This document shows, one piece after another, positions 35,174 to 50,758 of a stretch of 64,000 nucleotides of DNA. Source of the stretch: a virus (lineage: Duplodnaviria > Caudoviricetes). Location: the IMG/VR virus record IMGVR_UViG_3300027708_000015, one strand, 5' to 3'. The notes under the pieces were generated by a model. It was not told the DNA's origin and did no database searches. It saw nothing but the letters and a program-made list of their open reading frames with translations. Numbering within the stretch: position 1 is the first letter of the stretch; every line of letters starts with the position of its first letter. The position numbers and the translations under genes were made by a program.

Positions 35174-37708
35174 TTAACCGCGAGCTATTTTGAGCCAGCG
35201 ATTTAGTTCTGCATCAGCTGATTCGGCTTGTTGCATGTAATTGCCCGACGGACCACCGTCCATTCTCATACCTGATTTTACGTTGCCCGGTAAACTTACA
35301 GTACCACTCATATTGACACCTGCTGGTGCTGGATTAGCATTTTGTTCACTACCTGTTGGTTGAGTACAACCGGCCAACGCCGCGTCCATAACTTCTTGTG
35401 CTCGGGCAAGAGCTTGCGCAACTGCCGCATCTTGTACCTCACCGCCCATCGGCCCACCGCCATTTTCTTTGTTCAATGCAGTCATTTCGTCTTTGATCTG
35501 TCTAATTAGATCCATTTGTTCTAGACTACACATAGGTTTAGCATCAGGTGCTGGATTAGGATTCACAACTGTGCTGTCTGGTACACAGCTCTTGCCATCT
35601 GTGCCTAGTTTGTATCCTGGCGGACATTTGCCATCCGGACCTGGGGGAATTGTTGTTGTAGTTGTAGTTGTTGTGTTATCGTTTTCGTGTCCACCAGCTA
35701 GTAGACCACCTATTCCGATTAAACCTAGCAGTCCGAGAAGGCCTGTTGACCATTTTGCTCGACCTTTGTTACGTTCCCACCATGTACCAATGGCTTTCTT
35801 GTCACCAGTTTTTACAGCGGCATCTAATTCTTTAGCAACAACTGGACTTACTTCTTTTTCCACTTGAGCAATCACTTTTGGCGCAGCCGTTTTTTCTGCG
35901 GCTGTTATTGGGCCAGCACCATTGACATGTATGTTAATTACCGGATTGGCATTTTGTGTTATGTTTCCGCCGTTGACTGAAGAACTGCTGTTATTGCTGA
36001 CGTTATTTCTTACTGTTGGTTCTTTTGGCGCAGGAATCCTTTTCTCTACTTTAGATATGTTCTTATTCAGCGCCGCCGAAAATGCCGCATCAAACTCTTT
36101 CTGGGTCATTTTCATTACATCGGCGGCACCTATGCCTAGCATTTTTTCGATGAATTTGGCACTAGCGTCACTTCCTGGTACACGTGACGCTTCGTCTAAT
36201 CTACTCAGACGTTTTTTCAGCTCAGACATCTTTTCAGATTCAGTTAATGGAACTTGTTTAGCATTATCGAATGCTTCATTGATCTCCATAATTTTACCCA
36301 TAAAATCTAGTGTTGCTGGATCCAGCTTGCCGGTTTGCGGTAGCCCTGCTTTGGCCTGACTTTGTTTTATGATGGCTGGATTCATGTTAATAAGTTTATC
36401 TACCAATGGCTGTGTAACACCGGTAGTGGCTTTATCGTGAATGGCCTTGGTTATATCTGCAACCACCGCAGTACCAAAGTTGACTCCAGCGTCGATACCT
36501 AAACGAGCCATACCTTTTAGTAAACCGCCGCCCCTTACTAATCCGTTAGCGACCAGTCCTCCGGGGATAGGTGCGCCAATGGTTCCTGCAATATCACCTA
36601 CGTCGTAGGCGTTGACTTTGAATGTTTTGTCAGCACCCAGCTTGTCACCTAACCATGTTTGATATAATGGGTTATTAAATTCAGCGGAGCTTGATTGTGA
36701 TTTGGCTCTAGCAGTATTGGCCATCTCTTTGCCCAATGCTGTTTTATAATCTTTCTCAATACCCAATCCTGCTTTGGCACCAGCAAGTATGTTGTCGCCA
36801 TAACCGAATGTCAACCCGTTGCCAAGCCCTCGAGCGCCTGCTCCCACATCAGTGGTAAATTGATTCATGCTGTATTCATCTAGATCAGTTTCGTATCCGA
36901 AACTTTCTACCAGTGCGTTACCTAGTCCTAAGCTGAATGACTCTGCCTGTGTTGAGCTGTTGGCATTATTTTGAACATTCGCATTTGCCTGTGTAGCGGA
37001 TTTTCCAACATTGGGGAACTGTTTGGCAATGTCGGGATATTTTTGCATTGCGCCAATAGTTTCTGGCCCTAGCTTACCATCTGCATGATATTTGGGCAAT
37101 GCATTGGGATCCTTTTGTAGGATAGCGTTTTGCATCTTTTGTACTTCGGCATCAAATTTCAAGTTGGGTTGTGGCACAGTACCAGTATTAGTACCAGCAT
37201 TAGGGTCAGCTTGACCAGTTGTACTAGTTGGAGGTGGTTTTACAACATCTGGTTGTTTGACCGGATCTGGTTTGGCTACCTTCAGTTTTGATAACAGCTC
37301 ACCCAGTTTTGCGATATGCTCTTGATTGAATTCACGATGATCTTCAGCTGTATTGTATTGCGCACTTTGATCACGGATTTGCTTGTCATACGTGTCGCCA
37401 CTTACGCCACTTATTCTTCCTAGGAAAGATGAACTGTGTGAATTAGGAGGAATAAGTCCTTTTGATTGAAGTTTCATGTCAACGTCTTTGCTAGGAACAC
37501 TGCCACGACTACCTGAGCTGGTGACAAATTCACCGTCGACCGGATCATACAATCCTGGCAACTGATTCTTAACTGCTAGGTCAGCAATAATTTTTGCTCG
37601 AGCATTGGGATCAGTATTTTGCCCAACTGCGGCCTGAACATCTTTTAGACGAAATTCGTCCAACTGCTCAATACTTTCTAATCTTGTCATTAGGTCTCTA
37701 ATATTCAT
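35174..37708 (-). CDS. Probable internal virion/ejection protein with two peptidoglycan-binding-like repeats and a transmembrane helix
   Basis: VQKMQ..ADGKLGPET..AM and KQSQ..GLPQTGKLDPAT (PG-binding-like); WSTGLLGLLGLIGIGGLLAGG TM helix; many (I/L)xE sites. Confidence 0.55.
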   Translation of the reverse strand: MNIRDLMTRLESIEQLDEFRLKDVQAAVGQNTDPNARAKIIADLAVKNQLPGLYDPVDGEFVTSSGSRGSVPSKDVDMKLQSKGLIPPNSHSSSFLGRISGVSGDTYDKQIRDQSAQYNTAEDHREFNQEHIAKLGELLSKLKVAKPDPVKQPDVVKPPPTSTTGQADPNAGTNTGTVPQPNLKFDAEVQKMQNAILQKDPNALPKYHADGKLGPETIGAMQKYPDIAKQFPNVGKSATQANANVQNNANSSTQAESFSLGLGNALVESFGYETDLDEYSMNQFTTDVGAGARGLGNGLTFGYGDNILAGAKAGLGIEKDYKTALGKEMANTARAKSQSSSAEFNNPLYQTWLGDKLGADKTFKVNAYDVGDIAGTIGAPIPGGLVANGLVRGGGLLKGMARLGIDAGVNFGTAVVADITKAIHDKATTGVTQPLVDKLINMNPAIIKQSQAKAGLPQTGKLDPATLDFMGKIMEINEAFDNAKQVPLTESEKMSELKKRLSRLDEASRVPGSDASAKFIEKMLGIGAADVMKMTQKEFDAAFSAALNKNISKVEKRIPAPKEPTVRNNVSNNSSSSVNGGNITQNANPVINIHVNGAGPITAAEKTAAPKVIAQVEKEVSPVVAKELDAAVKTGDKKAIGTWWERNKGRAKWSTGLLGLLGLIGIGGLLAGGHENDNTTTTTTTTIPPGPDGKCPPGYKLGTDGKSCVPDSTVVNPNPAPDAKPMCSLEQMDLIRQIKDEMTALNKENGGGPMGGEVQDAAVAQALARAQEVMDAALAGCTQPTGSEQNANPAPAGVNMSGTVSLPGNVKSGMRMDGGPSGNYMQQAESADAELNRWLKIARG

Positions 37709-37732
37709 GTCTTTTTCCTATATCGTACAATG

Positions 37733-37740
37733 TACTTATT
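37733..37740 (-). promoter_or_regulatory. T4-like late promoter variant (AATAAGTA)
   Basis: Upstream of 37708; same family as the GATAAATA/CATAAGTA sites. Confidence 0.45.
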
Positions 37741-39815
37741 TATTCTAAGTGTTTACTGATTTGAGAGCGACGCTTGGGAGCTACACCCTTGCCGGTTTGC
37801 CTAGCTTGCTTTAGCTGTTCTATCCCGTGTGCTATCTGTGCCGCACGTCCGGCCAGTGTTTGCATAACTCCGCCAGTGGTAAATTCCTGCGCGATACGTT
37901 GCCATAACAGCAGTTTGCTGGACAAGTCCATGTTCTGCATACTTTTAACGTCATCAGCCAGTCTAATTATGTCATGGTTGGCCATGTTGATCACAGTTTC
38001 CAACGGATGTGTATTGGCTTTGCCGTGGCTAACGTCGGGATTATGTACATCTCTATCAGGTTGATCGAACATAGGACTTTCTGTTAATCCATGTTGTTTG
38101 TACAAGTGATGCAGTTCGTCATCTGTTGCATGCTCTAGATCGCTGAGATCTATACCTGCTCGTTTGCTTATACGACGCATCATACGATATCGTTTCATTG
38201 GCTCCATAGTGCTTGGCGCTTCCTCTAATCCCAGCTGATCACGACCGTCATGATCTAGCACATTGTCCTGTGGACCAGGGCCTGTACTTAATATTTTGGC
38301 ATGTGATAATTCACGTGTGGTGTATTCGTTGAATGGCATTTCACCCTGCAGAGGTAGACTTTGTTGTGATGTAGGCACTGGTGCTTTGAGAAATCCCCTT
38401 AATGATCCGGGATCATGTATGATGTCGTTTTCAATAGCGGTGCGCATTTCGGGAGTACCATGCATGTGATGTGTTATCAGTTTGCCTATTTCGTTTCTCG
38501 GGATAGTCAGTTCGTATCCTGTGGGATATTGAACTATTGCTGCCTGCGATCCTTTTGAATAGGATGCTACTAGATCTTTCCACAAGGCAGAACCAGCTTT
38601 GATAACTGCTCCTGCAATAGCACTGCGAGCATCTTCAGCTACGGTATCTGCTGTATTAGGCACGCCTTTTTTGATATTGTTGAGATGGTTACTGGTTTTT
38701 TCATGCCCGGCCAATAGACTTTGAATGTATGCAGATGCAGGATTATCAGGATGGTGCAGATTAGCTAGATCATTGTTGGGTGAAGATGCTACTCGAGACC
38801 TTGTCGGTAATCCTTTGATATTGGGAATAGCATGCTGTCCAGTCATTTGTGCAACAGTTTGTGCAAACGGATTCACAGCTGGCGTCTCGGGCTGACTAGT
38901 AGTAGGTGTTGGAACTGTTGCTTTCACAGCACGTGGTGCCGTCGCCGGTTGAGAGCTAGCAGTAGTTTGTGTTACTGCTCTAGGTTGTGCTGTTGCTGTG
39001 GTCTTTGGTTTGGCTTTGGGTTGTGCGGCTACTGCGGCTACTGCGGGTGATTGGGTTGATGATTGGGTCGGCTCAGCATGTCGCATCTTTTCAGGCTCAA
39101 CATCGTGTTTATGTTGTTTAGCTATCTCACCTTTTTCAGTGTCATGGTGTCGCTCTATCTCTTGTGCCGCTACTGCCGCATCTTGCTGTGTAACTTCGCC
39201 ACTGGCAACCTTGGCATTTAGATCACGGAATCTTTCCTCAGTATTGGCCAGCAGGTCCTGTAGCTGGGTATACATATCCATCTGGCGATCTATAGTTACC
39301 TGTTGCTGTTTAGCAGTATCTGCCAGTTCGCTGGCAGCGGCAGCCATTGCTTCTATATCTCCTTCGTCTCCGGGACTCATCTGATGAGCCTGTTGTAGGA
39401 AACGATTTGCCTTAACACTTAATTTATTTGTATTGAGTTTGTGTCCGTGTTCTTTATCGTCATGGTCACGTTCTTTGAACTCGCGCATCAGTACACGTTC
39501 AGCTATAGTTTGACTATACTGTCTTAATAGCTGTTGTTTGTTGGTTTTTTCTTCTGCAACTTCTTGTTCAACCTCGTGGAAAAACTTACGAATACCGGTA
39601 TTTGTAAACTTTTTCTTTTCTATTTGGGGAGTTTGCTGATAGTGTTGCATTGCCATTTGTACTGGCAAAGACACTTTGTGAGGATTAGTTGCTTCGTTGA
39701 GAATCTCGACATCGTTTTTATCAATCACTGATAGAAACTTGGCCATGCTGTCAGCACCTACTACAGGCTTTGTAGCAACTCCATCCATCGCCTGTAGTAT
39801 GCGCTTCATGTCCAC
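37740..39815 (-). CDS. Large low-complexity protein, probable internal head protein
   Basis: 691 aa; Q/A/P/T-rich linker; modules begin after ILNE, VAE, FNE and LTE. Confidence 0.5.
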   Translation of the reverse strand: MDMKRILQAMDGVATKPVVGADSMAKFLSVIDKNDVEILNEATNPHKVSLPVQMAMQHYQQTPQIEKKKFTNTGIRKFFHEVEQEVAEEKTNKQQLLRQYSQTIAERVLMREFKERDHDDKEHGHKLNTNKLSVKANRFLQQAHQMSPGDEGDIEAMAAAASELADTAKQQQVTIDRQMDMYTQLQDLLANTEERFRDLNAKVASGEVTQQDAAVAAQEIERHHDTEKGEIAKQHKHDVEPEKMRHAEPTQSSTQSPAVAAVAAQPKAKPKTTATAQPRAVTQTTASSQPATAPRAVKATVPTPTTSQPETPAVNPFAQTVAQMTGQHAIPNIKGLPTRSRVASSPNNDLANLHHPDNPASAYIQSLLAGHEKTSNHLNNIKKGVPNTADTVAEDARSAIAGAVIKAGSALWKDLVASYSKGSQAAIVQYPTGYELTIPRNEIGKLITHHMHGTPEMRTAIENDIIHDPGSLRGFLKAPVPTSQQSLPLQGEMPFNEYTTRELSHAKILSTGPGPQDNVLDHDGRDQLGLEEAPSTMEPMKRYRMMRRISKRAGIDLSDLEHATDDELHHLYKQHGLTESPMFDQPDRDVHNPDVSHGKANTHPLETVINMANHDIIRLADDVKSMQNMDLSSKLLLWQRIAQEFTTGGVMQTLAGRAAQIAHGIEQLKQARQTGKGVAPKRRSQISKHLE

Positions 39816-39821
39816 GGAGGA

Positions 39822-41468
39822 TTACCCCAATAGACGTTGTGTCAATGCACGGATTTGATCAACTTCGCGGTTTTCAACTAGAGCTGGAGTTTCATTACGA
39901 TTTAAACGAGCCAGTTGTTCTTGCATGCGAGTAAAATCTGTTGACTCTGGAATTGGCTTTCCTGGTTTAACTGGTAGGGTTTTACCGCCTACATTCATTG
40001 TGGTGTCGCCATTTTCACGAGCGGCTTTCAACTTACCGGTCAACTCATTGCCGCCTTCGTCGGCCATCTTGTCGCCTTTGGACAACTTGTCTTTCTTTTC
40101 AATAGCTTTCTTCTCGGCCATGTAAGCTGTAGTTTCTTTGATATTCTTCCACATAGCGGCAGCGGCAATCTTCTTGCCTTTTTCACCACCGCCTGCACTC
40201 TTGGCCACTTTGTCAAAACTCTTACCTGGTTTGCCGATGTCACCACCTGCTTTAGCTTTTTTAACTACTGCTGATTTCTTAGCGGCACTTAGACCTGCAC
40301 TTGGCTTACCTTCTGCCATTGGTGCTGGCATCATTGATGGACTGCACTCATACATCTGTCCACCTTGGATAGCTGGGTGGCTGTGATAGCATTCACCCAT
40401 TGCACCGTGACTAATCTTTCCACCACACTTTTGGCACTCATCTTTGTGATGTTTCATCAAATCAATATTGCCTGCTTTATGATGTTTGGAATATTCACTA
40501 GCATGATGATGAGCCAGTTCAGCTGGACTCATGTCTTCCTTTAGCTTCTTTTTGGTCAAATCATTTTTGCCCTTGCCATCTGCCGCAAATGCTGGCACAC
40601 TTTTGCCATTGACTTTCTTCATTGGCATGCTGCCTTCTGGGATCAATTCATCATCACTGCTTTTGTTCATGCGTTTGATGGCGGCTTGCGTGGCCTTCAT
40701 CTTGGTATGGTATGCTTCTGCTTTGGCAACTGCCGATGGGTGCGCACGATCTCTTGCAGGAGCTTTGGCCACATGACCTTCTCCACCGCAATGTGGGCAT
40801 GGCTCTGACATGCCTTCACCTAGATCTTTGTCTTTGCTGGCACCGTGACCTTTGAAGCTGTCTGAATATTGTTTTTCGTGACGTTTGCTGTCGTCTTTGT
40901 TGTTGAGTTTGGTCACTTTGCCGCCTTTGGCAGTTTTATAAGTGTCACCTTCTTTGGCACGATTGTCAAAATCATCTTTGTTATCGTGTTCTTTGCCTTC
41001 TTTCATATCGTCACATGTGCATTTCTTAGCTGGTTTATGACAGCCTGAACATGTACTTTCCATCTTCATTTTTTCAGCTTGAGTCTTTTTAAGGTCTTTC
41101 ATTTTATCTTTGGCTTCACTCAATAGATTGATAAGATGATTTCGTTGGCCTTCACTTAGAGTGTGCATGGTTTCAGCATCGCTTAGATGTTTGCTGTAGT
41201 CATTGAATTTCATTTCGTACTCAAGATAGTGATATACTGATGCAATATAGTCAGCTGCCTTGGTTACCTTAGCTTGAACCCATGATTCTAATTGATCATC
41301 ATCATGAAGCTGTTCGAACAACTTTTTACTGTAGCTCGCTAGTTTGTATAGATCTGCTTTAGCCATTTTACCCTGTTGCTCCTTTTCTTCTGGTGATAAT
41401 TCTAAATGATGATTTGCAACATCATCTTGACCGCCCATTGCTGGGTCCATATTATCTAAATCTGCCAT
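39822..41468 (-). CDS. K/H/C-rich modular protein, probable internal head protein
   Basis: 548 aa; CxxC pairs, His clusters, basic repeats; modules start after xxE-G/D/S junctions. Confidence 0.5.
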   Translation of the reverse strand: MADLDNMDPAMGGQDDVANHHLELSPEEKEQQGKMAKADLYKLASYSKKLFEQLHDDDQLESWVQAKVTKAADYIASVYHYLEYEMKFNDYSKHLSDAETMHTLSEGQRNHLINLLSEAKDKMKDLKKTQAEKMKMESTCSGCHKPAKKCTCDDMKEGKEHDNKDDFDNRAKEGDTYKTAKGGKVTKLNNKDDSKRHEKQYSDSFKGHGASKDKDLGEGMSEPCPHCGGEGHVAKAPARDRAHPSAVAKAEAYHTKMKATQAAIKRMNKSSDDELIPEGSMPMKKVNGKSVPAFAADGKGKNDLTKKKLKEDMSPAELAHHHASEYSKHHKAGNIDLMKHHKDECQKCGGKISHGAMGECYHSHPAIQGGQMYECSPSMMPAPMAEGKPSAGLSAAKKSAVVKKAKAGGDIGKPGKSFDKVAKSAGGGEKGKKIAAAAMWKNIKETTAYMAEKKAIEKKDKLSKGDKMADEGGNELTGKLKAARENGDTTMNVGGKTLPVKPGKPIPESTDFTRMQEQLARLNRNETPALVENREVDQIRALTQRLLG

Positions 41469-41493
41469 GTTAAACTCCGTGTTTATCTTTATG

Positions 41494-41501
41494 TATTTAG
41501 C
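41494..41501 (-). promoter_or_regulatory. T4-like late promoter (GCTAAATA)
   Basis: Upstream of 41468. Confidence 0.5.
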
Positions 41502-41718
41502 GTCGTTTGATGATCGCTGCCTTCTTACCGGGCTTGCTCTTTATGTTTTCCATAGGTGCGCCAAACAAACTTACTTCGTCTTGATCCAATGCGTTAACGC
41601 TTTTTACCGGCTTATTATTGGCATTGTTAGCATAATCTGGGTTGACCACGGTGGCTATGTTGGCACTACTGGTAGCACCCATACTGGCTGATTCATCTAT
41701 TATTTCTTTGAATCTCAT
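41497..41718 (-). CDS. Small protein with MRFKEII N-terminal motif
   Basis: 73 aa; N-terminal motif shared with neighbours. Confidence 0.55.
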   Translation of the reverse strand: MRFKEIIDESASMGATSSANIATVVNPDYANNANNKPVKSVNALDQDEVSLFGAPMENIKSKPGKKAAIIKRR

Positions 41719-41945
41719 CGCTTTCTTCCTCTAAACCCAGGACCTATTGCTGTTTCGCCGCCCATGAATTTGGGCAAACTGAACCATAGTTTAAACCATT
41801 CTTCTGTACCGGGTTGTATGTTTTGTTCACGTTCGATAATCTTTTTTTCTGTACCAGTTATGCTGATGTTACTGCCGCCATAAGGTTTCAAACCTGCATA
41901 TTCTGTTATGCCTGCCAGTTTCCTAAGACGTGCTAGGTCATCCAT
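41715..41945 (-). CDS. Small protein (likely start MDDLARLRKLAG)
   Basis: TAATG coupling with the dps stop. Confidence 0.55.
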   Translation of the reverse strand: MDDLARLRKLAGITEYAGLKPYGGSNISITGTEKKIIEREQNIQPGTEEWFKLWFSLPKFMGGETAIGPGFRGRKR

Positions 41946-42388
41946 TACTTCAAACTCGAGCGTAGCATCCAACTGTGCTTCTTGTGTGCATCTTGTCGAT
42001 CAGCTAGAAAATTACTCAGTCCGTGATCTCCGTGTGCTTCAGCCATATCAAATGTTATACGGAATATCTCCGCCATTTTTTCGCTGTCTGTTAGCAATTC
42101 TTGTAGCATACCCGTCCAGTCTGGCACATGATTTTCATCTTCCACTGCTGTAAGCAGACTAAATCTTTGTAGGCTAGCAGGTGTGTAAACTTGCAGTGCT
42201 CGTAGATGCTCGGCAAATGGATCTATAGCACCGTATACTTCTTCATATATGGTCTGAAACAATTCATGCAGTTGGCCAAACAACGGTCCTTCCACATTCC
42301 AGTGGAAGTTGTGTGCTTTTAGATAGAAACTAAATTCACTGGCAAATGCTGTTTTCAAACTCAAATGATATTTGTTATCGTCTTCCAT
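41945..42388 (-). CDS. dps: Dps/ferritin-like DNA protection protein
   Basis: YLKAHNFHWNVEG..QLHELF..YEE..D..AE; C-terminal H.KH.WML. Confidence 0.92.
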   Translation of the reverse strand: MEDDNKYHLSLKTAFASEFSFYLKAHNFHWNVEGPLFGQLHELFQTIYEEVYGAIDPFAEHLRALQVYTPASLQRFSLLTAVEDENHVPDWTGMLQELLTDSEKMAEIFRITFDMAEAHGDHGLSNFLADRQDAHKKHSWMLRSSLK

Positions 42389-42804
42389 TATACACCGTAT
42401 CTATTCTTTTTCTTTTGGGCCACAATGCTAGTAGTATTTGTTTCTTTTGGCTCTTGGCTACCTTTTTTAGTAATAGCTTTCAATTTAACACCCAGTGCTT
42501 TGGCACTGTGATTGATCATATCAGTGTCTACTTCGGTAAATTGCGTTAGAACCATTTCGTTAGAGGCATAGCCTTGATGCTCTGATTGATTGTGCGGACT
42601 GCCGGCCATGTGTACACCCAAACGATACATGTCATAGTAGTGACCAGGCCAATCTGGTATTGATACCATACCGGGTATAGCGGCTTCGTGGTGATCGTGT
42701 ATTTTATTGCGTTTGCCGTTGTGAACATGTCCGGGGTGAGTACCGCTTCCGTCTGTTACACCGCCGTCATCCTCTTTGAGTATTATAAATTCTTTTGCTC
42801 GCAT
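42388..42804 (-). CDS. Small protein paralogous to the C-terminal module of the 1105-aa protein
   Basis: Starts MRAKEF and ends SQEPKETN.TS…NRYGV, like the last 130 aa of 42804..46121. Confidence 0.65.
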   Translation of the reverse strand: MRAKEFIILKEDDGGVTDGSGTHPGHVHNGKRNKIHDHHEAAIPGMVSIPDWPGHYYDMYRLGVHMAGSPHNQSEHQGYASNEMVLTQFTEVDTDMINHSAKALGVKLKAITKKGSQEPKETNTTSIVAQKKKNRYGV

Positions 42805-45800
42805 TATACACCATACCTATTGCGCTTGGGCTTGTTTACAGGACTAGTTTTATTCGTATCCTTGGGTTCTTGACTCTTGCCGCGTTTATCTAATTCTCCA
42901 GCATCACTTGGAATCGTAGCAAGAGCTTGGTACATCATCATCTGCTCTTCATCTGTGTATGGAAAAGCCACATTGTATTTTTCAACAAAACTACTGGCCG
43001 GCATATCTACAGCTTTTTTGCTCTTGCCATCGGCCATAGCAGCCGCCATCATAATACGATTTAGATGATATGTGCGATCATACCCGCCCACATCTCGCAT
43101 CAAAACGCCACCGCCCTGCCCAGCATCAACTGCATGGTCGTGACGGTTATCGGTAGGCTTTGTACTTAATTCTGCTAAAAACTCTTTTGCTCGCATTTTT
43201 CTAATCCAGCTGTTGGCTTCTTTTATATTTAGCGGATCTGCAGGCGGCTGTTCTTGTTTGTCGTGTAGTCCCATACCTTGTCTGGTTAGATTCATCAAGT
43301 GCTCAATCCATTCTTTACCTAATTTTGCCTCATCAAATCCGTGTTTCCAAATTTGATATTGTTGTTCGGGAGTACCTGATTTCAATGCGTTTCTTAAATT
43401 ACTAAAACTTATACCAGTTCCCCCTGCAGCCTCGTCACGCTCTGTGATATACGGAGTTACTTTCACATGTTCATAGCCTTGGAATTTATTAACAGCCTTC
43501 ATCAGGGCCGCAGCCATATTTGTTGCCATTTTAGCGCGATCTTTGCCCACTGCGATAACAATATTATCATAACGCGGGGATTTTCCTGGCAAAGGATTAA
43601 TTAGTTCATGTTTGATTTTTTGTATTAATGCACCACCCTGTATCACTGTACCTATGTTGTTTGCATATTCTGGATACAGTTTATGCCATGTTTGTACTTT
43701 TACTGCTGGGGGAATAGGATCATCTTTGCCTTCAGCATTGCCAATAAACAAATAAGGATCCCCTCCCAATGATTTAGCCAAGGTAACAGTGTGATTCCAT
43801 AATTGTTCATGCCCTTTATGCCCAACAAAACTGCCAACAGCAACTACCGCAGTTTTGACATTGCCTCTCGGACGTTCTGTACGAGCGCTGGCCTTGGCAG
43901 CATTTTTACCTGCAATGACTGCACGTTGCTCAGCACTGGTAACTTTGATAGGGCCTAATCTGCTGTTGATAACTATACCTTCGTAGTCTTGCCCTAATAG
44001 GTCTTTGCCTAAAATGTTGGGATCGTTAATGATAGCCTTTTCTAATTCCAATGCAATCGGCTGTAGAATTTCTTTGGCTTCACGTTTTAGTGCCAGTTTG
44101 CCGCTGGACAGCATCGCTTTGATCTGTTCAATGTTTTCCATCGGCGGAACAATAGCAGTAACATCCAATGCTTGGCTTTGTGTTAAACTGTTGTTAATAA
44201 ACATCACACTGCCTTGTTGTCCAAGCCCTGTTAATTTCTTAACCACTTGGTTGCTATCGGGCAGTGCTTCCCCGGTTGATGCATCGCTGACATGGAAAGG
44301 AACAAGCGCCAGCTGTATACCGTCTGGCAATCGATCATATTCGATACCTACAAATCTCAATTTACCTTCTGGAGTTTCTGTAGCAAATGGCAGAAATAAT
44401 ACTTCGCAGGTCACTTGCTTGTTGACTAAAAAATCTTGCCCTAATTTACTGTCAACTAGCTCAACTGCTTTCATCATTTCGTTAAACAAATCATCAAACA
44501 TTTTTGCACGGCCCAGTATGTCCGTATCTTGTGTGCCTTTTTCTTGATGATACTTTAAGAATGTTGCTTCATAGCGCGGAGGAGTTCGACTAGTACCCAT
44601 AAAAGGTTTGCCATCTGAATTTTTACCAAATCGACCACCGAAGCCGTCTACTTTTACATTCAATGGAATATTTTGCAATTTAAAGTTTCCGTTGCCGTCG
44701 TGAATCTCATCTAGGAGATCTAACAAATCCATTGGTTTTAAATCACGAAGATGTGGCATGCCTTTACGCAGTTGTGCCTGTACTTCTGCTTCGTTCAACT
44801 GTTGCCCACCGTGCCAATCTGGCCAAGTACCATTGGCTACAGCAATCTTTCTTTCACGACCATACTGTATCTTTTTACCTGCTTGATCTGGTCTAGGTTT
44901 ATATTGGCGTTTAAAGTTTTCTAAGTCTAAATAATCTCCCTCGTATTCTCTAGCCATTTCAACAGCCATGGGCCTTAGATTTGTTAGTTTTAGTTTTTCT
45001 AACATCTGATCAATAGCGGCGAATTTGATATCCCCATCAGCCTTAGGATCGTCGCGTTCGATCATTTGACTACCGGGCTCGAAACATATTTCAAAGAAAC
45101 GTTGCATGGTTTCTTGTTTTTGTCTTTCAGTTAGGTATTTGCCTACTAGATCAACAGTGCCTAAAAAAGTCCATTGTAGTTTGCTATCTTCCGGAGTAGG
45201 CTCGTGACCAAATAGTTTTGCAAACTGACTTTGCAAATTTTGATCGTATGGTCTATCTTTAACTTCAACAGGCTTTACTACCGGCAGTTCCTCTTTGGAA
45301 TTATCTGGATGCGGCAAATGTCGTTGTTCACCAGTCTTTTCATCGTTAACTGGCCCATATGGCTCACTTAGTCCGCCGCCTTGTTTACCCGATACACCGA
45401 ATGAATATTTTTGAACCCAGTCCGGAGCTACAACGTCGACCTTGTTCTTGCCTCTTCCGGTACCAGTTTGCACTTGAGCATGTATTTTTATAGCACCAGC
45501 TAGGGCTCTATAGAGATATTTGTGGAACACACCTTTGATACCAGCTGTCAAGTCACTCCACTCTGAGCTGTGACTAAATCTAAACCAATCAGTGGGTTTA
45601 CCATCTTGGTACTCGCCGAACTCAAAATCTATCTGTATTTTTATTGGAGGATTACTAAACTGAAATAGACCATTATACTGTTCGTTACCACTACCAAACC
45701 CTAAAAATACAGTATCACCAATTTGTTTATTTGTGTGGCTTGTTAAGAAATCTCTAACTTGCGGTTCTAAATCTCTATCTACTTGTGTATCAATATCACC

Positions 45801-46121
45801 GACCTTGGGTTTATACTGTGTAAATTCCTCATCACTAACACCTTCTGTATTAAAAAAGTGTAAACTGCTACCACTTAGGAATTCTCTGCTGGTCAATAAG
45901 TCAGGTTCCCATAAGTTCTTTCTTGTCTGTTTATGAAATGCTAGATTGATATCGTGCAGTAACTTATTTAAAAGTCCAACCATAAAGGTGCGGTTATGCA
46001 CTTTTAAATCTATCTTGTCAGCATAATGTACTGGTTCGCCTTTCTCAGCATCTCCGATACTTAGGTTACCACCTTCGATAATAATTCGTCTGGGACTGAT
46101 AAACAGCTCGCGTAGTAGCAT
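42804..46121 (-). CDS. Multidomain protein: Pol-beta-type nucleotidyltransferase + ligase-like (KxDG) domain + HxGH cytidylyltransferase-like domain + MRAKEF module
   Basis: KVGDIDTQVD; NVKVDG..CEVL..DYEGIVI..IKV; AVGSFVGHKGHEQL..VIAVGKDR..ISFSNLR. Confidence 0.65.
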   Translation of the reverse strand: MLLRELFISPRRIIIEGGNLSIGDAEKGEPVHYADKIDLKVHNRTFMVGLLNKLLHDINLAFHKQTRKNLWEPDLLTSREFLSGSSLHFFNTEGVSDEEFTQYKPKVGDIDTQVDRDLEPQVRDFLTSHTNKQIGDTVFLGFGSGNEQYNGLFQFSNPPIKIQIDFEFGEYQDGKPTDWFRFSHSSEWSDLTAGIKGVFHKYLYRALAGAIKIHAQVQTGTGRGKNKVDVVAPDWVQKYSFGVSGKQGGGLSEPYGPVNDEKTGEQRHLPHPDNSKEELPVVKPVEVKDRPYDQNLQSQFAKLFGHEPTPEDSKLQWTFLGTVDLVGKYLTERQKQETMQRFFEICFEPGSQMIERDDPKADGDIKFAAIDQMLEKLKLTNLRPMAVEMAREYEGDYLDLENFKRQYKPRPDQAGKKIQYGRERKIAVANGTWPDWHGGQQLNEAEVQAQLRKGMPHLRDLKPMDLLDLLDEIHDGNGNFKLQNIPLNVKVDGFGGRFGKNSDGKPFMGTSRTPPRYEATFLKYHQEKGTQDTDILGRAKMFDDLFNEMMKAVELVDSKLGQDFLVNKQVTCEVLFLPFATETPEGKLRFVGIEYDRLPDGIQLALVPFHVSDASTGEALPDSNQVVKKLTGLGQQGSVMFINNSLTQSQALDVTAIVPPMENIEQIKAMLSSGKLALKREAKEILQPIALELEKAIINDPNILGKDLLGQDYEGIVINSRLGPIKVTSAEQRAVIAGKNAAKASARTERPRGNVKTAVVAVGSFVGHKGHEQLWNHTVTLAKSLGGDPYLFIGNAEGKDDPIPPAVKVQTWHKLYPEYANNIGTVIQGGALIQKIKHELINPLPGKSPRYDNIVIAVGKDRAKMATNMAAALMKAVNKFQGYEHVKVTPYITERDEAAGGTGISFSNLRNALKSGTPEQQYQIWKHGFDEAKLGKEWIEHLMNLTRQGMGLHDKQEQPPADPLNIKEANSWIRKMRAKEFLAELSTKPTDNRHDHAVDAGQGGGVLMRDVGGYDRTYHLNRIMMAAAMADGKSKKAVDMPASSFVEKYNVAFPYTDEEQMMMYQALATIPSDAGELDKRGKSQEPKDTNKTSPVNKPKRNRYGV

Positions 46122-46123
46122 GT

Positions 46124-46498
46124 TTAGTCCTTGTACTTGCCTTCGGCGTGGTGTTGATCGTGCTCGTCGTATAACAGTTCACATACTTGCTTAACAGTAT
46201 CTTCGTCCAGTTCGTCTGGTAATTCACGGATAGGAAATTTTCTGACATACACTCTGTATGCATCTTTTACTGCTTCGCTGAAAATTGCAGGTTTAGGATG
46301 ACCTTTGCCTTCCTTCATATCGAGGAATTTAGCCAGGGCCGGATATGTGTAACGACGATAGCAATGATCATCGTGGTCCATGTAATGTGCTATGTCTTCG
46401 GCTAGATCGTAATCGATAACTCGTTGTCCATCGTCTTCGTGTTTTACGAAGTCTGTATCTTTGAAGAAATTACCTTCTAATAGTTCTCTTAAGCGCAT
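46124..46498 (-). CDS. Acidic small protein with MRLRELLE N-terminal motif
   Basis: 124 aa; first gene after the late promoter at 46545. Confidence 0.55.
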   Translation of the reverse strand: MRLRELLEGNFFKDTDFVKHEDDGQRVIDYDLAEDIAHYMDHDDHCYRRYTYPALAKFLDMKEGKGHPKPAIFSEAVKDAYRVYVRKFPIRELPDELDEDTVKQVCELLYDEHDQHHAEGKYKD

Positions 46499-46544: not shown

Positions 46545-46552
46545 TATTTATC
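46545..46552 (-). promoter_or_regulatory. T4-like late promoter (GATAAATA) heading the 35-46.5 kb block
   Basis: Recurrent motif. Confidence 0.6.
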
Positions 46553-46555
46553 GCT

Positions 46556-47164
46556 TTAGCTTTTAACAATGCGTTCTATTTTGGAGATACTTTCGCCTAG
46601 ATGCATCTTGACTATCAAAAGATTGTTATCACCTGTGACATAGCAGTGTGTGCCACCCCAACTGCGCTGTTTTCCTAGATCTCTTATACAGCTTTTGGTC
46701 AGTTTGCACTTGGGACTAGTTTCAGCCCACTCAACAAACGCAGGGTTAGGATGCAGTGTTCGCCCAAGTGTGATACGATAATCGTAATCCATCTTGGGCA
46801 TAACAATGGTATTTTCTGCTAGGGTAGTATTTGCAGATGGCTGACTTATATACTTGACTTTGCTTTTATCCAGCTTGATCAGTTTATCTATCTGTTTGCG
46901 ATCATTGGTGTAGACCGTGATCCAAGGTGCTTCTACTCTGATATCAATATCTGGTATCTTTTGCAAAGTTGATGCTAACAGTAGGGCGTAGTCTAAATCT
47001 TCTTGATCTCTTACTGTGTTTACACCACCATTGGAACTGATAGATAATTTAGATATCTTTTCAAAAAAATCTCCGCTACGAAACCAGCTGGCGCCAGCAA
47101 TGGCCAACACTATCTTGTATTGGTACTTGCTTTTGAATAGTTTTGTAGTTGTTTTAACCTGCAT
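46556..47164 (-). CDS. Hypothetical protein (likely start MQVKTT)
   Basis: ORF track 46556..47176; overlaps the clpA end. Confidence 0.55.
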   Translation of the reverse strand: MQVKTTTKLFKSKYQYKIVLAIAGASWFRSGDFFEKISKLSISSNGGVNTVRDQEDLDYALLLASTLQKIPDIDIRVEAPWITVYTNDRKQIDKLIKLDKSKVKYISQPSANTTLAENTIVMPKMDYDYRITLGRTLHPNPAFVEWAETSPKCKLTKSCIRDLGKQRSWGGTHCYVTGDNNLLIVKMHLGESISKIERIVKS

Positions 47165-49439
47165 CTGGTATCTCAACCAACGAAGCGGCAGAATCCACAG
47201 TCAGCAAAGGAACATTTTTAGATTCTTTTCCTTTGCTCACTATTACCAACTGATCTGCATTTCTGCTGATAGTGGCCCAACCACCATTCTTTAAATCACC
47301 AAACAGCATGAGTTTGGCCAACGGACGTTTGATTTCTTTGTCAATAACACGTTGTAGAGGACGAGCACCCATCTTAGGGTCAAACCCTTTCTCAATAAGA
47401 TACTCTATAGCATCTTTGTTGATCTTGATACGAATAGCTTTGTCCTTGACCTGCTCACGTAGTTCATCCATAAACTTGCCCACAATCTTGACCATGGTAT
47501 CTTTGCTGAGCTTGCTAAATGTAACAACCCCATCTAAACGATTGCGGAACTCTGGAGTAAAGAACTTTTTCAAATCTTTATCGCTATAGTCCTTTTCTTG
47601 ACCACCAAAGCCGATTGCATTCTTTTCAGCATCGGCAGCACCGGCATTGGTTGTTAGAATTAGGATCAAGTTGCGACAGTCGGCTCGTTTGCCATTGCTA
47701 CCGGTTATAGAGCCATTATCCATCAGCTGTAGTAACACAGTCATTACATCTGGATGAGCCTTTTCAACTTCGTCTAGAAGCAAAACAGCATTTGGGGCTT
47801 CTTGGATCTGTGTAATCAGTTGTCCAGCATCTTCTTCAAACCCAACATAGCCCGGTGGACTACCAATCAGCTTACTGATACTGTGTTTCTCTTGATACTC
47901 ACTCATATCAAAACGTAGCAGTTTTACACCTAGATTCTTGGCCAACTGTTTGGCAGTTTCAGTTTTGCCAGTACCCGTTGGACCCATGAATACAAATGAT
48001 CCGATCGGTTTGTTTTCTGATTTAAGTCCTGCTTGTGCCACCATGATCTTATCTACAACTTCTGTTATAGCTAAGTCTTGACCATACACCACCTGTTCAA
48101 GATTTTCTTGTAGGTTACTGAGATTTGCACTTTCAGTCTCCATGATCTTTTCTTCGGGCATGTTAATCATCTTGGCCAGCTCATACTGTACTTCACGTTC
48201 AGTGATGATTCGCTCATCTGCAAGTTTGAGATTGAAACGACTACATGCTAGGTCGATCAGATCGATTGCCTTGTCAGGTAGTTTCTTATCTGTCTGATAC
48301 TTGACCGACAGTTTGATAGCCGCTTGTAATGCATCATCACGGATTTTGGTATTATGAAATCCTTCGTAGTATTTCTTAATACCTTTAAGGATCTGCAGAG
48401 TCACTTCAATTGTGGGTTCGTCAACAGTGATACGTTGGAAACGACGCATCAGCGCACGATCCTTTTCAAAGTGCTTGCGATATTCTTCCCAGGTAGTCGA
48501 TGCTACAACTTTGATGTTGCCTTTGCTTAGAGCCGGTTTCATCATGTTAGCGAGATCGTTAGCTGAGTTGCTAGCAGATCCTGCGCCACTGATCATGTGT
48601 GCCTCGTCGATGAACAGCACAGTCTTACCTTTCTTTTGCAGTGCTTTGATAACTTGTTTGAAACGTTCTTCAAAGTCACCGCGATACTTACTACCGGCCA
48701 ACATGGCACTGATATCTAAACTATAGACTTTATATTCTTTCAAAAACTCCGGAACTGAACCGTTTACAATATTAAAGGCAAGTCCTTCTGCAATAGCAGT
48801 CTTACCAACACCTGGATCTCCTACGAGAATCACATTGTTTTTATTGCGACGACCCAGTGCTAGGGCAATATTTTCTAGTTCATCAATACGACCAATTACT
48901 GGATCAATCTTCTTTTTAACTACTAGATCATTTAGGTTGCTTGTAAATTGATTTAAAGCTCGATCGCTATTCATGTCGGCGCCGCCTGTTTCTTCTTCAG
49001 CGTCTTCAGTGCTGTTGTTAATGTAATCAGCAAATTTATCTTTGTCAATATTTGCCTGTTGGATATAAAACACAGCCCAGCTACGCTTCTCGCCCATCAT
49101 AGCAAGGAATACATCTGTTGGTTCAATACGTTGCCGTCCATTGAACAACACTTGAGTGAATGCACGATTAAGTACACGCTCTACACTTTGTGTCTTTTTG
49201 GGTTTGACTACCACATCCGGAACAGTAATTTCACCGCATTTGTTTTGCAAGTAGTCTGTTAAACTATTCTTAAGCAAACTGGGATCACTGCCGTATCCTT
49301 GTATAGAACTAGTAAAAGTTTCATCAGACAACATAGCCGCCAGCAAGTGTTCTATTGTTAGATATTCATGATGCAGTTTTTTAGCAGTTTCGATAGCCTG
49401 TTCAAAAACTGCTTGTAAGTTGTCGCTGGGTTCAACCAT
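47154..49439 (-). CDS. clpA: ATP-dependent Clp protease ATP-binding subunit ClpA
   Basis: Clp N domain, two AAA modules (GDPGVGKT, LFIDEAH; GPTGTGKT, LLDEVEK), IGF loop (NAIGFGG), MGARPL. Confidence 0.92.
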   Translation of the reverse strand: MVEPSDNLQAVFEQAIETAKKLHHEYLTIEHLLAAMLSDETFTSSIQGYGSDPSLLKNSLTDYLQNKCGEITVPDVVVKPKKTQSVERVLNRAFTQVLFNGRQRIEPTDVFLAMMGEKRSWAVFYIQQANIDKDKFADYINNSTEDAEEETGGADMNSDRALNQFTSNLNDLVVKKKIDPVIGRIDELENIALALGRRNKNNVILVGDPGVGKTAIAEGLAFNIVNGSVPEFLKEYKVYSLDISAMLAGSKYRGDFEERFKQVIKALQKKGKTVLFIDEAHMISGAGSASNSANDLANMMKPALSKGNIKVVASTTWEEYRKHFEKDRALMRRFQRITVDEPTIEVTLQILKGIKKYYEGFHNTKIRDDALQAAIKLSVKYQTDKKLPDKAIDLIDLACSRFNLKLADERIITEREVQYELAKMINMPEEKIMETESANLSNLQENLEQVVYGQDLAITEVVDKIMVAQAGLKSENKPIGSFVFMGPTGTGKTETAKQLAKNLGVKLLRFDMSEYQEKHSISKLIGSPPGYVGFEEDAGQLITQIQEAPNAVLLLDEVEKAHPDVMTVLLQLMDNGSITGSNGKRADCRNLILILTTNAGAADAEKNAIGFGGQEKDYSDKDLKKFFTPEFRNRLDGVVTFSKLSKDTMVKIVGKFMDELREQVKDKAIRIKINKDAIEYLIEKGFDPKMGARPLQRVIDKEIKRPLAKLMLFGDLKNGGWATISRNADQLVIVSKGKESKNVPLLTVDSAASLVEIPDAG

Positions 49440-49920
49440 TTAATTTCCTTTGCTTTTTACGTGCCATACTTAGTTTTAAATCACTTACATATTCTGTAAA
49501 TGTAATTCCGTCTAAATGATCCAACTCATGCTGGAAACACCTACTATCAATGCCTTCAAGTTCTATTATACACTGTTTTCCAGTGCTGTCAAGATAGCTG
49601 GCGGTAATTTTGTTGTGGCGAGGAACTTTGAGCCATAGATTGGGAAAACTTAAACAACCTTCATTGCCTTCTATTTTATCGTTATCACCAAACATGATCC
49701 ATGGATTAAAGCAGCCAAACTCACGTCCGTCAGTGGTACGCATAACAAACACTCTGCGTAGCAAACCAACTTGATTTCCGGCAAGCCCTATACCACCAGA
49801 GGCTTTCATAACTTCTAGCATGTCACGTTCTACAACTGCGGCATCAACATGTTTAACAAAGTCCCAATGTTCTGCCTTTTGTTTTAAAATTGGATCAGGC
49901 TCTTTTACTAAGTTCAGCAT
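49432..49920 (-). CDS. def: Peptide deformylase
   Basis: GIGLAGNQVG, EGCLS and HELDH motifs. Confidence 0.95.
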   Translation of the reverse strand: MLNLVKEPDPILKQKAEHWDFVKHVDAAVVERDMLEVMKASGGIGLAGNQVGLLRRVFVMRTTDGREFGCFNPWIMFGDNDKIEGNEGCLSFPNLWLKVPRHNKITASYLDSTGKQCIIELEGIDSRCFQHELDHLDGITFTEYVSDLKLSMARKKQRKLNG

Positions 49921-50758
49921 CTAGAGTTCTCAACCGTTCTATTAAATTTGGATTAGTTACTGCGGGAGTCTTAATTTTGATTATGCTTACAAATCTGCCC
50001 TTGTACCCAGTGTTCACATTGGGAAATCCTGAACCGTTGCTGGCAAATTCTGTACCATGCTCTACCCCAGCTCGTATATCTAGATCCAACTGCTGTCCTG
50101 TTAAACTTGTTATTTTTTTCTTTACACCGATCATAGCTTCTATAGCACTGATCTCAACGTATTGATATAAGTCGTCACCTCTGCGTTCGTAGTTAGGGTC
50201 AGGCAGTACTAGGATAGTAACATTTAAATTACCTCTTGGAACTCCGGGCATACCGTCATCTCCAAGACCAGGATAGCGTATAGTGTCACCATGGCTAACA
50301 CCAGCTGGTACATTGATAACCACGTTCTGATTGCGACCACTTGGCAGTCTATAATTGGCTTCTAGTTGTTTACCGTGATAGCTATCGACAAAACTTACAG
50401 AACATTGAATATTTAAATCTCTATTTCTACGTATCTGCTGTCTATGCATCTGTCCAAAAATATCACCAAATGGATGCCCGCCACCGAACATACCTCCAAA
50501 TGGATCAGCACCGGGTTGGAATGGATTTCCAGTATTAAAATGGAATTGTGTTCCGTTACCAAATTGTCGTTGCTGGTCATATTCAGCTCGCTTTTGCGGA
50601 TCACTTAGTATATCGTTAGCAACACTGATATCTTTGAACTTGGCTTGATCACCGCCTTTGTCCGGATGATGTTTATTAGCCAAGCTTCTATACGCTTTCT
50701 TTATTTCTTCAGGGCTAGCCGATTCGCTAACACCTAGTGTTTGGTAATAATCAGTCAT
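49895..50758 (-). CDS. dnaJ: DnaJ/CbpA-class J-domain co-chaperone (no Zn finger)
   Basis: DYYQTLGV..HHPDKGG J domain, G/F-rich region, C-terminal PGLGD..GNL..RRGDDL. Confidence 0.9.
   Translation of the reverse strand: MTDYYQTLGVSESASPEEIKKAYRSLANKHHPDKGGDQAKFKDISVANDILSDPQKRAEYDQQRQFGNGTQFHFNTGNPFQPGADPFGGMFGGGHPFGDIFGQMHRQQIRRNRDLNIQCSVSFVDSYHGKQLEANYRLPSGRNQNVVINVPAGVSHGDTIRYPGLGDDGMPGVPRGNLNVTILVLPDPNYERRGDDLYQYVEISAIEAMIGVKKKITSLTGQQLDLDIRAGVEHGTEFASNGSGFPNVNTGYKGRFVSIIKIKTPAVTNPNLIERLRTLDAELSKRA

Follow-up and report, generated by a model that had tools for sequence, protein, structure and literature searches.

Three unrelated nucleotidyltransferase folds in one phage polyprotein with putative capsid-targeting and prohead protease signals

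The internal proteins IPI-III and Alt of phage T4 carry a capsid-targeting sequence (CTS), are processed by the prohead protease gp21, and are ejected together with the DNA. The CTS corresponds to the first ten residues of the internal protein leader, and gp21 cuts after the tripeptide L/I-x-E; Alt, which is an enzyme, is trimmed at both ends (PMC9026906). IPII and IPIII start with MKTYQEFIAE (read from NC_000866). Polyvalent proteins (Iyer et al. 2017, PMC5512222) combine several unrelated enzyme domains in one polypeptide, and are predicted to enter the cell along with the DNA at an early stage of infection. Here, we describe a protein with likeness to both. It consists of 1105 amino acids (aa; 125 kDa) and is encoded by an intact open reading frame (ORF) on the minus strand, at positions 42804-46121 of a stretch of 64,000 nucleotides (the window) from IMG/VR virus record IMGVR_UViG_3300027708_000015, the genome of an uncultured T4-type jumbo phage from a lake. 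The reading frame is open throughout, and the product contains three unrelated nucleotidyl-transfer folds with intact catalytic motifs. We propose, with moderate confidence, that it is a late-expressed, head-targeted polyprotein that is processed by a gp21-type protease and injected, and that its first two modules work on broken nucleic-acid ends.

As in IPI-III and Alt, there is a short leader like MKTYQEFIAE that ends in (L/I)xE, and expression seems to be late. In contrast to the T4 proteins, the cargo is a polyprotein of three nucleotidyltransferases with internal junction sites, rather than a small basic protein or an ADP-ribosyltransferase, and its packaging is a feature that we infer. 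The leader (aa 1-16) is followed by four modules, all on the minus strand: module A (aa 17-444, 44790-46073), assigned to the Pol-beta superfamily, with a PolX-like palm, a thumb and a C-terminal helical bundle; module B (aa 445-745, 43887-44789), a ligase-type covalent (lysyl-nucleoside monophosphate) nucleotidyltransferase domain without an oligonucleotide/oligosaccharide-binding (OB) domain; module C (aa 746-984, 43170-43886), an HxGH (HIGH) nucleotidyltransferase similar to FAD synthetases and cytidylyltransferases; and module D (aa 985-1105, 42807-43169), a small basic unit with a conserved tail. One alignment was made for each module (A1 to A4, for A to D). The assignments are based on AlphaFold2 (AF2) models and fold searches for A and B, on sequence profiles for C, and on alignment A4 for D. 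The first-pass annotation of this DNA had already proposed three nucleotidyl-transfer folds in one polypeptide, and A and B indeed model to the folds that it had claimed. The motifs are found where it had placed them, namely GDID at aa 108 (codon 45800), KVDG at aa 490 (44654), EGIV at aa 714 (43982) and GHKGH at aa 767 (43823), together with SGSS at aa 83, QIDFE at aa 163, CEVL at aa 572, IKVT at aa 725, GKDR at aa 859 and ISFSNLR at aa 904. They are not chance strings, since they sit on invariant or nearly invariant columns of the family alignments.

The evidence for packaging starts with the leader, MLLRELFISPRRIIIE (46074-46121, minus strand), a putative capsid-targeting propeptide that ends in I-I-E and follows a pattern found across the family of module A. 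Of 207 A-family proteins, 184 have a leader of up to 30 aa, variable in sequence, whose terminal [LIVMFA]-x-E stands immediately in front of an invariant GGN. Another 10 of the 207 start with M-GGN, which leads to the same mature end. Campylobacter phage CP220 gp100, for example, starts with MKLSELMFILE, directly followed by GGN. In the AF2 model of module A, the leader is unstructured, with a predicted local distance difference test (pLDDT) score of 42 over residues 1-10. A similar arrangement is seen at the junction of modules A and B, where 87% of 138 distinct linkers have [LI]xE immediately in front of the sequence with which B starts and which is conserved (here LNE444, followed by AEVQAQLRKG). 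At the junction of B and C, [LI]xE occurs in just 1 of 141 cases. CTS-like N-termini are found in 4 of the 78 genes of the window, and all four lie within an 11-kb block that holds the polyprotein gene. Standalone D proteins, including the product of the ORF at 42388-42804, start with MRAKEF, which is close to the T4 leader, and the small gene upstream of the polyprotein gene has N-termini such as MRIRELFEGN, MKLYEFF and MLLNEFF in related loci.

This small upstream ORF (46124-46498, minus strand, 124 aa) is kept in front of the polyprotein gene in most related loci, and its product has a CTS-like N-terminus, MRLRELLE, followed by G. A late-promoter-like element of the T4 type, GATAAATA, is located 54 nt upstream of it (46545-46552, minus strand); the T4 late-promoter consensus is TATAAATA. 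In 21 of 32 related loci, an ATAAATA element is present 29-69 nt upstream of the equivalent gene, compared to 12.8% of background genes. The 124-aa product is probably a co-transcribed head cargo, as judged from its start and its position. Among the contigs of five relatives, a gp55-like late sigma factor is found in four, and a gp21-type protease (PF03420, 89-91 bits) in three, these contigs being themselves 40-62% complete.

Homologues of two modules have been detected in virions of cultured phages. Gene 1-56 of Campylobacter phage vB_CcoM-IBB_35 (HM246720, 39251-40417) encodes a homologue of module A (tblastn E 6e-27, profile E 5e-94). Its 44.4 kDa product, described as having 'no homologs', is among the 38 proteins of purified virions that were identified by tandem mass spectrometry, with 17% coverage (PMC3322345, Table S2). 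Cyanophage S-CREM2 gp154, a homologue of module C (profile E 1.8e-16), starts with MKNFSSFLTE, followed by A. This protein, annotated as a cytidylyltransferase, was detected in virions, and cytidylyltransferases are frequent in cyanophage virion proteomes (PMC10665884). The earlier suggestion that the protein is tagged for packaging has thus gained comparative support from the leader and the junction sites, and indirect support from proteomics. Taken together, the 1105-aa protein is probably injected with the DNA.

According to its model (pLDDT 93.6), module A is a true Pol-beta-fold enzyme with a PolX-like thumb. In alignment A1, which comprises 60 diverse sequences, G84, S85, D109, D111, D165 and E167 are invariant. 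The succession of hG[GS], Dx[DE] and a third carboxylate is that of the Pol-beta superfamily, with 24 residues between GS and DxD instead of the usual 9-13. A Foldseek search of the PDB retrieved Pol beta, lambda and mu as well as MenT4 with a probability of 0.99, but with E values of only about 2e-3. In VIA, an exhaustive structural scan over 48,161 chains, the best matches include TUT7 (Z 7.8, root mean square deviation 2.8, 100 aa), TdT (Z 7.3, 189 aa) and the PolX of African swine fever virus (ASFV; Z 6.9, 158 of 176 aa). Trf4, TUT1, OAS2, GLD-2, Pol lambda, beta and mu, PAP and ANT(2'') also match the catalytic part. About half of the top 50 rows belong to the Pol-beta superfamily, including all that align the catalytic region; the others are helical proteins that match the C-terminal bundle. 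The longest alignments are those with family X polymerases (TdT, ASFV PolX, and Pol lambda with 186 residues). Palm and thumb can be aligned with PolX, and a helix-hairpin-helix or 8-kDa domain is not evident. The ESM Atlas search returned minimal viral PolX (TM 0.66 by target) and also ligase-PolX fusions of giant viruses, and the BFVD search uncharacterised phage proteins and giant-virus PolX. One of the BFVD matches, A0A6J5TD12, is a 1096-aa protein of an uncultured phage, annotated as ParB/Sulfiredoxin, with an A-like domain, which ties module A to the polyvalent-protein repertoire. No Pfam model, including the PolX models PF14791 and PF14792, matched any of 60 A-family members. Module A appears to belong to no described family; it resembles PolX more than RlaP or the CCA-adding enzymes.

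Module B was modelled with similar quality (residues 430-745, pLDDT 91.9). In alignment A2, K490, D492 and G493 (motif I), E573 (motif III) and F590/Y595 (motif IIIa) are invariant, and E714-G715 (motif IV) and K726 (motif V) nearly so, with at least 90% conservation. In the VIA scan, ranks 1-44 are all ligases, capping enzymes or other proteins with this nucleotidyltransferase fold (snurportin, poxvirus A22). RNA ligases lead the list and account for seven of the ten best neighbours: NgrRnl (Rnl5 of Naegleria gruberi, 5cot) reaches Z 10.8 (root mean square deviation 3.4, 189 aa), followed by REL1 of T. brucei (TbREL1, 9.5), archaeal Rnl3 (9.4), T4 Rnl2 (8.7) and T4 Rnl1 (8.3). DNA ligases score between 8 and 9, and unrelated chains do not exceed 4. 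A Foldseek search with the model is in agreement, with 26 matches at E<=1e-3. With Rnl5, REL1 and Rnl3, module B shares the catalytic set of Lys, Asp, Glu, Glu and Lys over 189-204 aligned residues. It differs from them in that the identity is only 11-15%, in that motifs IIIa and IV are separated by a helical insert of some 110 residues, and in that it lacks a flanking OB or dimerisation domain and has an HxGH domain as its fusion partner. An OB domain is not seen in the model (residues 430-745), and B leads via a 25-residue helix and a linker into the HxGH domain. The ESM Atlas search with the B model identified phage clusters that carry the Pfam domain DUF6267 (PF19782), with TM scores of 0.63-0.67, some of them fused to CTP_transf_like. 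None of 28 B members matched DUF6267 at E<=0.05, and a comparison of B with Syn33_181, a cyanophage DUF6267 protein, by hhalign aligned only motif I (E 0.026). Since the structural likeness comes without a Pfam match, module B is a sister group of DUF6267 and not a member.

For module C, alignment A3 has H768, G770, H771, G859, D861 and R910 as invariant residues. H768-K-G-H771 is the HxGH motif, R910 lies within I904-S-F-S-N-L-R910, and G859-x-D861 corresponds to the GxD motif of FAD synthetase. The PHROG family phrog_3041 ('cytidyltransferase') matches aa 740-959 with an E value of 4e-12, and a search of the PDB with the C profile retrieved RibF chains around the HxGH motif (E 4e-4). Pfam FAD_syn matched 23 and NCBIfam RibF 21 of 28 C members, all below the curated cut-offs, and the ESM Atlas feature neighbours of C carry CTP_transf_like. 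Judging from these profiles, module C would be an HxGH transferase with FAD synthetase as its nearest relative. With regard to the earlier assignment to the cytidylyltransferase/NMNAT family, the nearest relative is FAD synthetase rather than NMNAT.

Module D is preceded by an internal CTS-like string, (K)MRAKEFLAE984, and ends in the conserved tail KSxEPxDTNKxSPVxKPKxNxYGV. It occurs alone, and fused to other proteins, elsewhere. In the window, the tail motif is present only twice, at 42807-42875 in the polyprotein and at 42391-42460 in the ORF directly downstream of it (42388-42804, minus strand), a standalone D paralogue of 138 aa that starts with MRAKEFIILKE and ends with KKKNRYGV (D profile E 7e-25, BLASTP E 2e-8). 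Searches of the PDB, Pfam and the ESM Atlas returned no relative of module D (best Atlas feature score 0.83). An internal translation start for D at M976 would have just a weak GGA 10 nt upstream. The tail, which stands at the carboxy terminus, has invariant S, E, S, K, N, Y and G residues and is restricted to D-family proteins. A function as docking peptide or as second propeptide is conceivable. The invariant S-x-E was considered as a cleavage site of the phiKZ type and discarded, because it does not fit the L/I-x-E rule of T4.

Searches of Pfam and the PDB with the complete 1105-aa sequence gave no match, profiles of A, B and D matched the PDB only at chance level, and Pfam gave no consistent match with A and B family members. 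The protein is nevertheless not isolated. More than 660 proteins of similar length, none of them informatively named, match most of its sequence, and the contigs of relatives reach 357 kb. An exhaustive family search yielded 945 representatives and revealed the module breakpoints: A is often standalone, with about 365 aa, and B and C are nearly always joined. The first-pass annotation had not recognised the architecture, which is not described in the polyvalent-protein paper. It is that of a large conserved family in uncultured T4-type phages, and not a one-off. Among 13 longer homologues, Pfam found DUF6321, HD_4, Amidoligase_2, NTP_transf_2 and DUF6934 in three and no match in the other ten. 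The additional C-terminal modules of these three (P0120, P0161 and P0047) are a RelA/SpoT-type HD domain (HD_4), Amidoligase_2 with a second NTP_transf_2 and DUF6934, or DUF6321. In one relative (locus L002), DUF6321 is a separate gene downstream.

The modules are also linked where they are not fused. In all relatives that were examined, A is fused or adjacent to a ligase-like B. In the Xanthomonas phages X1 and BUDD, there are four adjacent separate genes, in the order A, KVDGER protein, B and cytidylyltransferase-family gene. The KVDGER protein of phage X1 (WEM34318, locus L007 3919-4923) is a hypothetical protein of 334 aa, encoded between the A-like and the B-like gene and named here for a string that corresponds to ligase motif I; its sequence suggests that it may be a second ligase-type gene of the A-B-C operon. 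In cyanophage Syn33, a DUF6267 gene (Syn33_181, E 2e-92, with a KWDG motif I) is followed by a 'cytidylyltransferase' gene (Syn33_182) that matches the C profile (E 2e-20). The order in this cyanomyovirus pair is the same as that of B and C, and Syn33_182 and S-CREM2 gp154 (E 2e-16) both match the C profile and have CTS-like leaders. In contrast to the polyprotein, the genes are separate and no A is fused. The B-C half thus corresponds to the cyanomyovirus pair of DUF6267 and 'cytidylyltransferase' genes. Because the A-B-C and B-C orders are kept as adjacent genes in other phages, the fusion reflects a conserved functional module.

On the basis of these data, the following course of events may be envisaged. 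The 16-residue leader would act as a T4-like capsid-targeting sequence, and a gp21-type prohead protease would cut after E16, E444 and E984, and possibly also after E968. This would release A as a piece of about 49 kDa with the new N-terminus GGN, B-C as one unit of about 60 kDa, and D with about 13 kDa. The pieces would be retained in the head and reach the cell together with the DNA, where they would act on broken nucleic-acid ends ahead of all phage gene expression. Module A would add nucleotides to 3'-OH ends, and module B would seal breaks with 3'-OH and 5'-phosphate ends via a K490-AMP intermediate. RNA, such as tRNA cut by host nucleases, would be favoured over DNA as the substrate. Module C would transfer a nucleoside monophosphate to a phosphate-bearing partner; its obligate fusion to B suggests that the B and C steps are coupled. 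A parallel exists in the RlaP (PF10127) and RNA ligase modules, in which a Pol-beta nucleotidyltransferase is genetically coupled to an ATP-dependent RNA-ligase-type enzyme, as A is with B. Nucleotidyltransferases of the RlaP type extend the 3' ends of damaged RNA by 1-2 nt, and ligation follows (bioRxiv 10.64898/2025.12.29.696909; PMC7824862). Unlike these modules, the phage protein has a PolX-like thumb, lacks RtcB, Pnkp or Hen1 partners, and has an additional HxGH domain as well as head-targeting signals. By analogy, tRNA repair, which was among the functions proposed at the outset, is plausible.

A number of observations weigh against this proposal, and some of them suit other explanations. 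With respect to packaging, the 1105-aa protein contains ten [LI]xE tripeptides, which is the number that its composition predicts, and the argument can therefore draw only on their conserved position. The A homologue of the Xanthomonas phages starts with M-GGN and has no leader, so that the enzymes can exist untagged. The homologues detected in virions are single modules (A, C) of other phages and not the full-length fusion, and the authors of the S-CREM2 study warn that cytoplasmic proteins, when abundant, can be carried along in virion purification (PMC10665884). Finally, the neighbours of the polyprotein gene are chaperone, lysis and replication genes, and head genes are not among them. Most of this would also suit a phage enzyme that works in the cytoplasm in the ordinary way and stays out of the head, with E-GGN and the junction motifs in structural or catalytic roles and with AT-rich leader codons that aid translation. 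We consider this explanation unlikely, though not far-fetched. For all their differences in sequence and length, the leaders end in [LIV]xE immediately in front of GGN, and, as the M-GGN variants show, the fold does not require the Glu. An unstructured leader and the confinement of such N-termini to four genes in one block do not fit it well either, and two different modules have been found in the virions of two unrelated cultured T4-type phages.

With respect to the chemistry, the VIA scores of module A (at most 7.8) are middling by the standard of the tool itself, the nearest relatives of A are family X DNA polymerases, which speaks against RNA repair, and the link to RlaP is not seen in sequence: none of 60 A members matched PF10127 at E<=0.1, and hhalign of A against T4 NrdC.11 gave a probability of 0.2. 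Repair in general is disfavoured by the lack of a kinase or phosphatase end-healing domain in the 1105-aa protein, and by the part of C in repair, which is left unexplained. An exclusive role in RNA repair is disfavoured by the same lack, by the closeness of A to family X and by the Dps gene in the apparent transcription unit of the polyprotein. The packaged and processed cargo may instead act on the incoming DNA of the phage itself, with A as a PolX-type gap filler or end extender and B as a sealer of DNA nicks, and mend damage that has built up in long-lived environmental virions. ASFV carries its PolX and ligase in virions, as a repair set of this kind. The length of the A alignments with family X polymerases, the minimal viral PolX clusters, giant-virus ligase-PolX fusions and giant-virus PolX in the Atlas and BFVD searches, the scores of DNA ligases against B at most 2 units below the best RNA ligase, and the Dps/ferritin gene, which is syntenic in relatives, all favour DNA. 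However, B lacks an OB domain and has mostly RNA ligases as its best neighbours, and A has neither a recognisable helix-hairpin-helix or 8-kDa domain nor a PolX Pfam match. We give DNA repair about the same low chance as the cytoplasmic enzyme. A slightly smaller chance is given to the idea that the obligate B-C unit performs an undescribed polynucleotide chemistry and does not simply seal nicks, for instance by building or removing a dinucleotide-type 5' cap or an adenylylated end on RNA or DNA, within a capsid-borne, protease-activated machine of three enzymes. Counter-defence by NAD+ restoration or signal interference, which the first-pass annotation had also proposed, is very unlikely. In this scenario, C would rebuild NAD+ or another dinucleotide cofactor, or A would make or destroy nucleotide signals, and B would adenylylate in a non-ligase role. 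C does share its HxGH clan with NMNAT as well as FAD synthetase, jumbo phages carry NAD salvage genes (PMC7824862), cGAS/CD-NTase-type signal synthases are among the weak matches of A (CdnG Z 6.1, cGLR Z 6.6), and one homologue has a RelA/SpoT-type HD domain. Yet no result points to NAD+ restoration: C matches FAD synthetase, and does so only around the HxGH motif, the NADase products ADP-ribose and nicotinamide cannot be turned back into NAD+ by an NMNAT-type domain on its own, and no NadV or phosphoribosyltransferase partner was seen in the locus or in fusions. No result points to signal interference either, as A is closer to PolX and the terminal uridylyltransferases than to CD-NTases, and the strict A-B-C linkage suits a polynucleotide pathway better.

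The genomic setting agrees with an origin from a T4-type phage, as a T4-like family B DNA polymerase and tail-fibre-like genes are present in the window. In INPHARED, there is no near-identical cultured phage and none that is close to the window at the DNA level. The identical 1105-aa protein is encoded on nine metagenomic contigs, the longest of 241 kb. The genes around the polyprotein ORF are ClpB-like, peptide deformylase, DnaJ and Dps, and synteny is kept in distant relatives for lysozyme, holin, DnaJ, deformylase, ClpB, two small genes, the fusion, D paralogues, Dps and DNA polymerase. The chaperone set, kept in relatives, lies directly upstream (47154-50758) and consists of a two-ring ClpA/ClpB-like AAA+ protein (761 aa), peptide deformylase and a full DnaJ. 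The Dps/ferritin gene is found at 41945-42388 (Pfam Ferritin, E 3e-22), apparently in the late transcription unit of the polyprotein, and is syntenic downstream of the fusion in two relatives (loci L002 and L003). In another relative (locus L004, 1685-4952), a ClpP-type protease, a 719-aa protein with a ubiquitin-domain match and a staphylococcal-nuclease-like protein are encoded near the fusion gene. The late-gene block of the window as a whole (35174-46498, minus strand) has the CTS-like starts MNIRDLM (844 aa), MRFKEII (73 aa), MRAKEFI (138 aa), MLLRELF (the polyprotein) and MRLRELL (124 aa). Its large products of 548, 691 and 844 aa have no PHROG match, and are candidates for further head cargo.

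The phage head proteins for which injection is known are nuclease inhibitors, ADP-ribosyltransferases, RNA polymerases and the like. In the literature that was searched, no head-carried kit of polymerase and ligase for work on nucleic acids is described in phages, there was no mention of DUF6267, and no publication combined the relevant terms. In terms of known categories, the protein would belong with the targeted and processed head cargo of T4-type phages or, what amounts to the same, with the polyvalent proteins that are injected. Like the polyvalent proteins, the homologues swap extra modules (HD, amidoligase, second nucleotidyltransferase, DUF6321). In contrast to them, the hub domains zincin peptidase and ArdC-N are absent from the protein, and the A-B-C order is fixed and also occurs in operon form, which suggests one pathway rather than a mixed toolkit. 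The text of the polyvalent-protein paper contains no ligase-type or HxGH domain, and no A-B-C architecture (PMC5512222).

If the 1105-aa protein is indeed head cargo, this would explain the recurrent 'cytidylyltransferases' in cyanophage virion proteomes, and would tell which function to seek in the widespread DUF6267 family. A possible role would also follow for a virion protein that is abundant in Campylobacter phages. Being compact, the B-C unit could serve as a new tool for joining or modifying the ends of RNA or DNA. More generally, it would mean that phages can bring enzymes for repair or end modification into position in advance, as an answer to defences that strike earlier than phage gene expression.

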